A stretch of DNA of 63,125 nucleotides, counting the filler, from Stramenopiles sp. TOSAG23-6 (taxonomy: Eukaryota): assembly GCA_900128565.1 (NCBI GenBank). It is 26 parts of 26 records of this genome, joined end to end, with 100 filler letters (N's around TTAATTAATTAA, not from the genome) between each part and the next. Parts side by side here need not be neighbours in the genome. Positions count along the whole stretch, not along the records: positions 2,445 to 4,788 come from LT638108.1; 25 more parts are not named here. The stretch is one strand, 5' to 3'. Made by a program: the position numbers and the translations under genes. Under the pieces are notes generated by a model. It was not told the DNA's origin, searched no databases, and saw only the letters and a list, made by a program, of their open reading frames with translations. Shown here one piece after another: positions 3,428-4,742 of the stretch (positions are counted from its first letter, which is position 1; every line of letters starts with the position of its first letter).

Positions 3428-4742
3428 ATGACAAATGCAGTGCTGAATGCAGGCAAAGTAACATGGTATTCCGAGGCACCACCAATGACTTCATATGCAA
3501 TCGCCAACATTATTAAGTCACCAGTCAAGTTTGTTATCGCTGGAGAGGGCTCCACTTCTCCAGTGTTGCGTTGTCCTGGAGGTGAGAAATCTTTTTGTGG
3601 CGACTTCGCCATCGCTCGTGCTTTGTGTCATTCGGCGCAAGCAACTGACGTATATTCCCCAGATCAGTCTATTCATCTTTCTAATCACCGCAATCATCAT
3701 CTAGATGTTAATATGTGGCTAGATTTTGCATTGAAACGCTTATCGGGTCCTGGTGTTTTCGCGGATGGTCTCGCTGTAGTTAACTTGTATTTACAGAGCA
3801 ATACATATCTTGTCGGAAATCAACTAACTCTAGCTGATATAGGCGTTTGGTCAGTACTTCGCGAATCACAATTTAAGGGCGACCAAGCTAACTTTCCATT
3901 TTTGACACGGTGGTTCAATTTGATCGGAGGTATGAAAGAAGTTGCAATGGCTGCAGGAAAACTAATTAGTGAAGCATGCCGCGCCTCTTCACAGGCTAAA
4001 CGTGTTGCTACTAAAAGTAAACAGCAGAATGATACCAAAAAGAAGAGTAAGAGTCATATTGCTGGTTTAATAGACCCTGACAGCATGCCTGATTTCAAGG
4101 AAAAATCAACAAATCCTGGTGGAAAAATCTGTACTCGGTTCCCTCCGGAGCCTAGTGGTTATTTACATGTATGTTTTATTTTTTTTACTTTCGAATTTAT
4201 ATTTTTTCGTACGAAATTTTGTACCTAACATTTTTTTTTGAAATATTTTTCCAAAATACATATTGGACATGTGAAAGCAGCTTTACTAAACGATTATTAT
4301 GCGCATGAAAAGTACAATGGAAGTTTAATTCTTCGGTTCGATGACACGAATCCAAGCAAGGAGAAAGATGAGTATGTTGAAAATATTATAATTGATTTGA
4401 AGAGGCTAGGCATTCAACCAGATAAAGTGACGCACACATCAGACTCTTTTCCATTGATAATCGACTACGCACGAAAAGCATTGAAAGCAGGTTGGTGTTA
4501 TATGGATAATACGGACGCCGAAACTATGCGCAATCAACGACTCGAGAAACAGCCATCAGAGCAACGAAATCGATCTCATCAGGAAAATCTTGAATTATTT
4601 GAGTTAATGCTTTTAGGCGATGAAGCCGCCAAGGGATTTTGTATGCGTGCTAAAATTGATTTCGCTCATAAAAATTCAACGATGCGAGATCCAGTAATGT
4701 TTCGAAGTAACCATACACCTCATCATCGAACAGGTACAGAAT
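3428..4742 (+). CDS. Cytosolic glutamyl-tRNA synthetase with N-terminal GST-C-like domain (exons 3428-4168, 4262-4742; 3' partial)
   Basis: TYLVGNQLTLADI (GST-C); TRFPPEPSGYLH|IGHVKAALLN (HIGH motif across the intron); LRFDDTNPSKEK; MRDPVMFR. Confidence 0.96.
4169..4261 (+). mobile_element. Introner-like GT-AT intron (93 nt) splitting the HIGH motif
   Basis: CAT|GTATGTTTT...TTCGTACGAAATTTTGTACCTAAC...TTGAAATATTTTTCCAAAATACAT|ATTGGA; removal restores YLHIGH and there is no AG at the junction. Confidence 0.9.

Follow-up and report, generated by a model that had tools for sequence, protein, structure and literature searches.

We analysed a 63,125-base stretch of DNA from Stramenopiles sp. TOSAG23-6 (assembly GCA_900128565.1), referred to below as the window, in which 26 contigs of about 2.3 kb are joined by linkers of the form N44-TTAATTAATTAA-N44. 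At 4169-4261 a gene for a cytosolic-type glutamyl-tRNA synthetase is interrupted by a short insert that begins with GT and ends with AT instead of AG, and inserts of the same organization lie in unrelated genes of the window. The data support an introner-like family with a non-AG acceptor. That the synthetase insert is one member of a high-copy, homologous introner-like family of short spliceosomal introns, resident in an AT-rich marine stramenopile, is the explanation we favor, and we hold it with evenly balanced confidence.

Two database proteins (P0121 and P0241) match open reading frames (ORFs) of the window exactly, except for internal deletions, and their source labels, which start with 'GSMAST32', point to a MAST-3-type marine stramenopile as the host; the next-best protein matches are oomycetes, diatoms and other stramenopiles, and the searches turned up no protein derived from a transcript of this organism. 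GC content per contig is 22-38%, and the genetic code appears standard. Since independent seawater metagenomes contain 0.30-0.84 of the sampled words of the synthetase contig (polyA metatranscriptomes up to 0.26), this contig exists in nature.

An interrupted glutamyl-tRNA synthetase gene

The exons of the synthetase gene and the signals of its intron are as follows (all on the plus strand).

3323-4168, plus: upstream exon, cytosolic-type glutamyl-tRNA synthetase with a GST-like N-domain, end ...PPEPSGYLH (ORF; Pfam GST_C; aligns to protein P0242 up to GYLH)
4169-4261, plus: 93-nt intron GT...AT (one frame open on both sides, 282 + 176 codons)
4169-4177, plus: 5' signal GTATGTTTT (position counts over 23 introns)
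4207-4229, plus: conserved core TTCGTACGAAATTTTGTACCTAAC (enrichment of TTTKTACCTAAC)
4248-4261, plus: 3' signal TTTCCAAAATACAT, with no AG from core to exon (position counts over 23 introns)
4262-4735, plus: downstream exon, start IGHVKAALLNDYY (Pfam PF00749 on all hits; alignment to P0242)

With a slash for the exon-intron boundary, the sequence from 4160 to 4270 reads ...GGT TAT TTA CAT / GTATGTTTTATTTT...TTCGTACGAAATTTTGTACCTAAC...TTTCCAAAATACAT / ATT GGA CAT GTG AAA..., and that from 4167 to 4261 reads AT/GTATGTTTT...CCAAAATACAT/, the exonic AT (4167-4168) being the last two bases of the upstream exon. Excision of 4169-4261, with a predicted junction at 4168/4262 that joins ...TTACAT to ATTGGACA, restores GYLH/IGHVKAAL, which is the HIGH motif of class I synthetases; P0242, a relative with 70% identity, carries GYLHIGHVKAAM without interruption. 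Because AT precedes the GT and AT also ends the insert, boundaries of the GT...AT, TG...CA and AT...AC kinds (the last at 4167-4259) all yield the same mRNA; GT...AT is the reading that suits every copy.

A comparison of intron positions with orthologues had been suggested on the basis of the sequence, and its outcome agrees with an insertion that relatives lack. Of 47 metagenome loci fetched, none was closer than 56% over the exon; in 18 of the 18 relatives examined (37-56% identity) the reading ...PSGYLHIGH... is continuous across H/I and the intron is absent, a test that is modest because some of these relatives may be prokaryotes.

The database version of the synthetase (P0241) reads ...GYLH-VS-ALLN...: the gap corresponds in the DNA to a forced GT-AG intron at 4173-4277, IGHVKA is deleted and the HIGH motif is therefore missing, and two more pieces have been removed from the upstream exon. 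Similarly, P0121 (41862-43361, minus strand) lacks four pieces of a continuous, conserved FKBP-TPR-cyclophilin ORF. Both of the public models compared are wrong, and ocean-survey proteomes of the MAST-3-type lineage may be distorted by gene models of this kind. An introner survey that works from annotated introns and drops any splice site of unfamiliar kind for want of RNA support (PMC12130899) would overlook a GT...AT family.

Verified introns, shared signals and repeated copies

Boundaries were verified by reading frame. Among 22 curated candidates, 20 left a single frame in which 32 codons or more were open on each side; to these were added 11449 (last exon of 8 codons), 49680-49783 and 58872-58986, while 20124 was dropped, giving a verified set of 23 introns. 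Two duplicate contigs were removed from all counts, leaving 24 distinct contigs: those at 48700-51021, 51122-53443 and 53544-55865 are identical letter for letter, including the positions of N, probably through assembly redundancy, and the last two were dropped. Apart from the synthetase intron, the set consists of the following (paired numbers are codons open on the two sides).

24875-24966, minus: near-identical copy in a KNTC1/Rod-like gene, AT/GT...AT (593 + 143; Pfam)
9926-10033, plus: kinesin intron AT/GT...AT, removal of which rejoins the P-loop region NVCI/FAYGQTGSGKT
10114-10201, plus: kinesin intron of a second subtype, GA/GT...AC, flank not duplicated (112 + 290)
10894-10987, plus: kinesin intron with family architecture and a canonical end, AA/GT...AG
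8366-8472, plus: AT/GT...AT (147 + 105)
13393-13502, plus: AT/GTTTG...AT (88 + 32)
38581-38683, plus: AT/GT...AT (281 + 72)
59370-59479, plus: CT/GT...AT, a 3' AT without a 5' AT (127 + 89)
59643-59790, plus: AT/GT...AT, 148 nt (68 + 183)
62795-62886, plus: AT/GT...AT (363 + 79)
49390-49498, plus: AT/GT...AT, with (CCCTAA)2 directly after the donor
49680-49783, plus: TT/GT...AT, end in frame, donor placed by reading the sequence
58872-58986, plus: TC/GT...AT (46 + 131)
14146-14255, plus: AT/GT...AT, two core motifs (48 + 62)
7553-7662, plus: TT/GT...AT, with (CCCTAA)2 after the donor
11354-11449, minus: eIF4E intron AT/GT...AT, weakly verified, downstream exon of 8 codons
9081-9173, minus: AT/GT...AT (61 + 35)
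12791-12929, minus: AC/GTGTG...AT, core duplicated in tandem within the intron (37 nt)
40723-40807, minus: AT/ATACG...AT, donor AT and not GT (47 + 39)
40976-41130, minus: AT/ATATG...AG (58 + 71)
5953-6121, minus: AT/GT...AT, 169 nt, two core motifs (347 + 94)
9315-9523, minus: AG/GT...AT, 209 nt (47 + 52)

Two further near-identical copies stand outside this set.

60808-60895, minus: copy in an RNA methyltransferase-like gene, cut at the contig start, 5' end AT/GTACG (88.3% by blastn)
63029-63125, plus: copy at the end of the window, AT/GTATT...ATACAT (0.93 identical to 4169)

The verified introns are 85-209 nt long, and since most lengths are not multiples of 3 the inserts must be removed. 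Their removal restores the coding sequence exactly, as the sequence-only reading had held for the family: beside the HIGH motif of the synthetase, the kinesin junctions are fixed by conserved motifs (NVCI/FAYGQTGSGKT, LLG/VAPRSAEEIF and KNK/AAAS), and the four kinesin exons, once joined, form a single ORF of 354 aa with P-loop, SSRSH and DLAGSE that is terminated by a stop.

One architecture runs through the family: an exon ending in AT, the donor GTAYGTTTT, a core TTTGTACCTAAC, a T-run (at -16 to -12) and a 3' end CAMAATACAT, with the conserved columns grouped in three blocks. On the 5' side, +1 is G in 21 of the 23 introns (A in 2), +2 is T in 23, +3 is A in 21, +4 is C in 13 and T in 10, +5 is G in 20 and +6 is T in 23, with +6 to +9 T-rich; the donor is thus GT in 21. 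The exon has A at -2 in 18 cases and T at -1 in 18 (the pair AT in 15). Toward the 3' end the counts are A 21 at -9, A 20 at -7, A 21 at -6, T 20 at -5, A 21 at -4 and C 18 at -3, followed by an A at -2 in all 23 and a final T in 20, G in 2 and C in 1. The claim that these introns end in AT instead of AG therefore stands for 20 of 23, with AG in two and AC in one. The core (motif TTTKTACCTAAC) has 28 matches in the window against 0.05 expected, and the string ATGTAYGTTTT has 22 against 0.32. In 20 of 23 introns the core, including TACCTAAC, is found 33-47 nt before the 3' end; TACCTAAC is branch-site-like and may act as the branch site.

Features of U2-type spliceosomal introns are therefore present (frame and conserved residues are restored, the GT donor is extended, and a branch-like motif lies upstream of a pyrimidine run), and one is absent: a 3' AG, which is found in only 2 of 23. 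From the sequences, the only reading that would fit all 23 introns is GT...A(T>G,C).

A profile search of the window (nhmmer), started from four named copies, gave 50 hits, or 48 after de-duplication. These copies were found as the sequence-only reading had described them, with the pattern AT/GTAY...TACAT/. Relative to 4164-4261, blastn identity is 89.8% over 98 nt for 24875-24969, 88.3% over 94 nt for 60808-60898 and 92.9% over 99 nt for 63027-63125; further truncated copies show 89-96% over 50-83 nt. The family is spread over unrelated host genes, as had been noted, including those for the synthetase, a kinesin, a KNTC1-like protein, eIF4E, an RNA methyltransferase-like protein, and MYND and TBC proteins, and the copies with 88-93% identity sit in three unrelated genes (synthetase, KNTC1-like and methyltransferase-like). 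The second subtype that had been recognized, GTACGTTTTCATCATG...TTTTTCACAATACAN, is confirmed at 10114, 11449 and 47045, with the variant ATATGTTTTCATCATG at 41130. 'Near identity' holds for the four named copies (88-93%) but not for the wider family, in which pairs at least 0.80 identical number 3 of 276, all in the cluster 4169/63029/24966.

Several introns carry two core motifs (12808-12878, 5953-6121, 9926-10033, 14146-14255 and 40976-41130), and in one of them (12791-12929) the core is tandemly duplicated as a perfect 37-nt repeat. The double-core introns look like internal duplications rather than nested insertions. Orientation relative to neighboring ORFs was the same for 28 copies and opposite for 12, with 8 left without a call; the 'opposite' calls that were checked proved to be artefacts, caused by N-runs where contigs end or by spurious AT-rich ORFs, and the count was not used.

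Flanking AT and the weighing of explanations

We propose that every copy would bring its own signals: the 5' GTAYGTTTT, a core ending in TACCTAAC, a T-run and the 3' block CAMAATACAT. The intron would be excised as GT...AT, with the A at -2 obligatory and the final base relaxed, T being far commoner there than G or C, and its 3' AT would be part of the intron itself instead of duplicated target. Newly arising copies would settle, or survive, directly after an exonic AT, which may mark a preferred site of insertion or else form the exonic half of the 5' splice-site consensus. The terminal palindrome ATGTA...TACAT (5-6 nt) would then arise because AT stands on both sides.

An excess of AT before the donors, as claimed from the sequence, is evident: 15 of 23 exons end in AT, where a phase-matched exonic background predicts 2.5 (P=8.5e-10), and AT precedes exact GTAYGTTTT in 20 of 32 cases (duplicate contigs dropped) compared with 11% before other GTA (P=4e-12). 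The accompanying proposal was that the family derives from miniature inverted-repeat transposable elements (MITEs): a non-autonomous DNA transposon, GTA...TAC, would insert at AT and duplicate it, and the 3' AT would become the acceptor. We consider this origin unlikely, if worth keeping in view. In its favor, 14 of the 23 verified introns are flanked by AT at either end, and the consensus ends, ATGTA(T) and (A)TACAT, are inverted over 5-6 nt where the exonic AT is present (3-4 nt without it); one copy, at 63027-63125, has the perfect 9-nt inverted pair that had been reported (ATGTATTTT and AAAATACAT). Precedents exist as well: in Micromonas and Aureococcus splice sites are supplied by duplications, and Fritillaria has an exonic TAC (PMC11282704). 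The frequency of AT before GTATGTTTT (GTATG) donors (13 of 18) and before GTACGTTTT (GTACG) donors (7 of 14) would fit decay with age, but the difference is not significant (P=0.28). Finally, a partial core copy, TTTTTTCATACGAAATTCTGTACCTAG, at 6960-7033 (plus strand) lies antisense in a minus-strand ORF (6074-7162), possibly upstream of the real start; insertion at the DNA level allows such a copy, and would be favored by it.

The duplication itself is not borne out. Where the exon ends in AT, 14 of 15 introns have the 3' AT, as do 6 of the 8 remaining introns (Fisher P=0.27); none of the eight other flanks (GA, AA, CT, TT, TT, TC, AC and AG) is repeated at the 3' end; and the 14 double-AT introns match the 13.0 expected if the two ends are independent (15/23 x 20/23 x 23). 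Being uncoupled from the 5' flank, the 3' AT thus behaves like a built-in signal, and the 5' AT like a separate preference of target or exon. Moreover, the terminal AT (A 23, T 20 of 23) is better conserved than the TAC of the putative inverted repeat (T 20, A 21, C 18), and we know of no transposon superfamily that makes a 2-bp AT duplication (Tc1/mariner makes TA). Of the terminal inverted repeats claimed for the family, the consensus shows the 5-6 nt given above; a long hairpin was rejected, as eight copies folded no better than shuffled sequences (z from -2.2 to +1.3), with 31, 21, 7, 94, 191, 84, 88 and 137 of 200 shuffles folding at least as well. The suggested search for a transposase gave no such domain among the 47 window ORFs scanned against Pfam, 63 kb being far too little to decide the matter. 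A strict AT duplication that later decayed in exons is possible. An alternative that fits just as well is that (C)AT/ at the exon end and (C)AT/ at the intron end correspond, in this lineage, to the usual (C)AG/GT...(C)AG/; reverse splicing, or insertion beside an AT, would then generate the new copies.

Several observations count against the introner-like reading. Removal from RNA by the spliceosome, and the exact cleavage sites, are predictions from sequence, and so are mobility and the path it would take, whether DNA transposition or reverse splicing; for the 14 of 23 introns with AT on both sides, GT...AT, TG...CA and AT...AC give the same mRNA. To our knowledge, a non-AG acceptor would be very unusual for a U2-type spliceosome. 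Most copies are 0.6-0.8 alike, much of the likeness lying in the conserved signal blocks, and the median pairwise identity of 24 full-length copies is 0.60 compared with 0.54 for shuffled sequences (shuffled maximum 0.65): common descent of all copies is not proven. Linkage of 5' and 3' subtypes, as a sign of descent from separate masters, was not significant (Fisher P=0.68). The family 3' end of the intron at 58551-~58734 is out of frame; this intron was left out of the counts, together with 20124-20227 (N-run downstream), 36910-36794 (which contains N and ends in ACAA or AAG), 44144 (for which two ends are in frame), 5291, 12708, 47045 and the composite 1860-2098. The sample, moreover, is 63 kb of small contigs only, enriched for repeat-bounded pieces.

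The low identities, the three pairs of 276 at or above 0.80 and the confinement of conserved columns to three blocks fit a second alternative, in which the introns are old and immobile and a spliceosome that demands long signals within AT-rich spacers has caused unrelated introns to converge. So does the shared architecture of every intron found in the window: a noisy ORF-pairing scan (264 pairs, three spots inspected by eye) revealed no unrelated GT-AG intron. Three findings make convergence improbable in our view. The copies that are 88-96% identical over 50-99 nt share the spacers AAATTCGAATTTA and GAAATATTTTTCC, which are absent from other working copies; we take this likeness as a sign of recent common descent rather than of selection on signals. 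Contig ends fall inside a copy in 14 of 48 cases compared with 8% expected (P=1.6e-5), as a high-copy, genome-wide repeat that breaks assemblies would lead one to expect. And the synthetase position is without an intron in all the relatives examined.

At one contig (1-2344) the repeat appears to have joined unlike sequences. In its region 1354-2291 an exon for succinyl-CoA ligase alpha ends IGIM at a family donor (1860), beyond which lie two tandem cores, a CACTAG end (2098) and then an ORF resembling an ABC-transporter signature (LSNGQRQ); the contig is probably chimeric across the repeat.

Shifting the boundaries two bases to the left would turn the family into AT...AC introns (ATGTAYG...ATAC), spliced by the minor or the major spliceosome. 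AT-AC is an established terminal pair, the 14 introns flanked by AT at both ends would yield an unchanged mRNA, and the U12 branch consensus, TCCTTAAC, is loosely resembled by the core TACCTAAC. U12-type introns have the 5' site RTATCCTT and a branch site close to the 3' end. The 5' site here, GTAYGTTTT, differs; the core, which in 20 of 23 introns is separated from the end by 33-47 nt, lies beyond the U12 distance known to us; the last two bases before the shifted boundary are AC in only about 18 of 23; and the 8 of 23 introns without an exonic AT cannot be AT...AC at all. We judge this shift very improbable. A scan of the window gave no U11, U12, U4atac or U6atac gene, which is uninformative at 63 kb.

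Least credible, by a small step, is the idea that these are not RNA introns but sequences removed from DNA, as in ciliates, or artefacts of amplification or assembly. Ciliate eliminated sequences are removed from somatic DNA, are bounded by TA and have short terminal inverted ends with a flanking dinucleotide, which the present inserts, bounded by AT, recall; the contigs are also short, and at least one (1-2344) looks chimeric. Against this stand the GT donor in 21 of 23, the T-run and the branch-like motif at a steady distance; a standard-looking code, with protein labels and best matches that are stramenopile; the presence of the contig's words in independent metagenomes; and the recurrence of the architecture in 24 contigs.

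The introner-like reading can be extended. It is possible, if somewhat short of probable, that the main spliceosome of the lineage has switched its acceptor from AG to AT and that nearly the whole intron complement is one self-propagating superfamily with its own donor, branch region and acceptor. If so, published GT-AG-based models of the lineage would be systematically mis-spliced, and recognition of the 3' splice site should have changed specifically in this lineage, for instance through U2AF, by analogy with Fritillaria.

Related systems and remaining features of the window

Introners of Micromonas pusilla and Aureococcus anophagefferens are spliced canonically (GT/GC-AG), the AG being supplied by a duplication (3 bp in Micromonas) (PMC11282704). 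The present family resembles them in comprising many similar short introns in unrelated genes, with their own splice signals, short inverted ends and a short border repeat, and in its aquatic microbial host (Aureococcus is likewise a stramenopile); it differs in that the acceptor is AT, uncoupled from the 5' flank, and the inverted ends span 5-6 nt.

In the tunicate Fritillaria borealis the bulk of introns are non-GT-AG, with 3' ends AC or AT for which a MITE origin has been proposed, and non-AG ends are tolerated by way of divergent U2AF paralogues (PMC11282704, PMC13326754); most start with AG after an exonic TAC, giving AG-AC or AG-AT termini (PMC11282704). Non-AG 3' ends, and an exonic motif beside the donor that matches the 3' end, are common to both. 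Here, by contrast, the donor is a strong, canonical-looking GTAYGT (GT in 21 of 23), a branch-like core is conserved, a uniform GT...AT rule covers 20 of 23, exons end in AT (15 of 23) and not TAC, and the host is a protist.

Amoebophrya introners have highly variable splice motifs, hairpin-forming inverted repeats of 8-20 nt and direct repeats of 3-5 nt over their borders, and the host has no U1 small nuclear RNA; no general transposase was found (PMC7789003). The likeness lies in a marine protist with repeated, non-canonical introns and inverted terminal repeats, the difference in the uniform, conserved signals of the present family and in the lack of a significant hairpin in the eight copies folded. 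Nonconventional introns of euglenids have neither a pyrimidine tract nor a conserved GT, and they depend on pairing between positions +4 to +6 and -8 to -6 (PMC11282704). Borders that are non-canonical and carry short repeats, pairing of one end with the other and a MITE origin that is suspected are points in common with the present introns, but here the GT donor and T-run are strong and only GTA(T)/(A)TAC could pair.

With U12 or AT-AC introns, finally, the family has in common the tolerance of non-AG 3' ends and long conserved 5' and branch signals, AT...AC being possible for 14 of 23 introns; the differences are those of 5' site, core distance and missing exonic AT set out above. The GT...AT family departs from U2 introns in its acceptor, from MITE-type introners in the lack of a visible duplication and from U12 introns in its consensus; we place it with the transposon-like, non-canonical kind of intron, as it works like an introner family with a non-canonical acceptor. 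Our literature search found no paper on GT-AT introns in protists and nothing relevant on MAST-3 introns; term finds in MAST genome papers returned no mention of unusual introns in the main texts, intron statistics being possibly placed in the supplements.

Few signals of eukaryotic gene expression are as well conserved as the AG acceptor. Large-scale departures from it are few (Fritillaria, Amoebophrya, euglenids and minor introns), and they are the main natural experiments on the co-evolution of the spliceosome with invading introns. A uniform GT...AT rule, together with an introner-like family, in a free-living and abundant marine stramenopile would be a further, independent example and an unusually clean one: its donor and branch have a strong, conventional look, and the acceptor alone is changed. 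Both the reading of the last intron base and the manner of spread (DNA transposition versus reverse splicing) would become testable.

Other features of the window are minor. Scans with Rfam and for tRNAs gave no matches in it. Two near-duplicate contigs (14663-17005 and 26847-29177) have 2265 ungapped matches over 2331-2343 nt; each carries an ORF of 776-780 aa that matches no Pfam family, and the other strand has long open ORFs too. In a gene for a RED-like protein (17589-19000, minus strand) the frame changes at 18113, where no family intron is found: this is either an assembly frameshift or a very short unrecognized interruption. A tandem repeat of about 100 nt at 56600-56840, in a contig with 22% GC, includes ATGTATGTTTT by chance and is not a family intron.

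Telomere-type short repeats, (CCCTAA)2-4, are dispersed through genes at 13 distinct places; AACCCTAACCCTAA with at most one mismatch has 26 matches in the window, compared with 0 expected.

5091-5104, 5720-5733, 6327-6340, 7560-7573, 11082-11095, 13952-13976, 19727-19740: telomere-type repeats, first part
35251-35264, 49163-49176, 49402-49415, 50183-50196, 60156-60172, 60560-60577: telomere-type repeats, second part

Some of these repeats are exonic (in the kinesin gene, DNPNPNE), two stand directly after the donors of family introns, and several are followed by TGAG.

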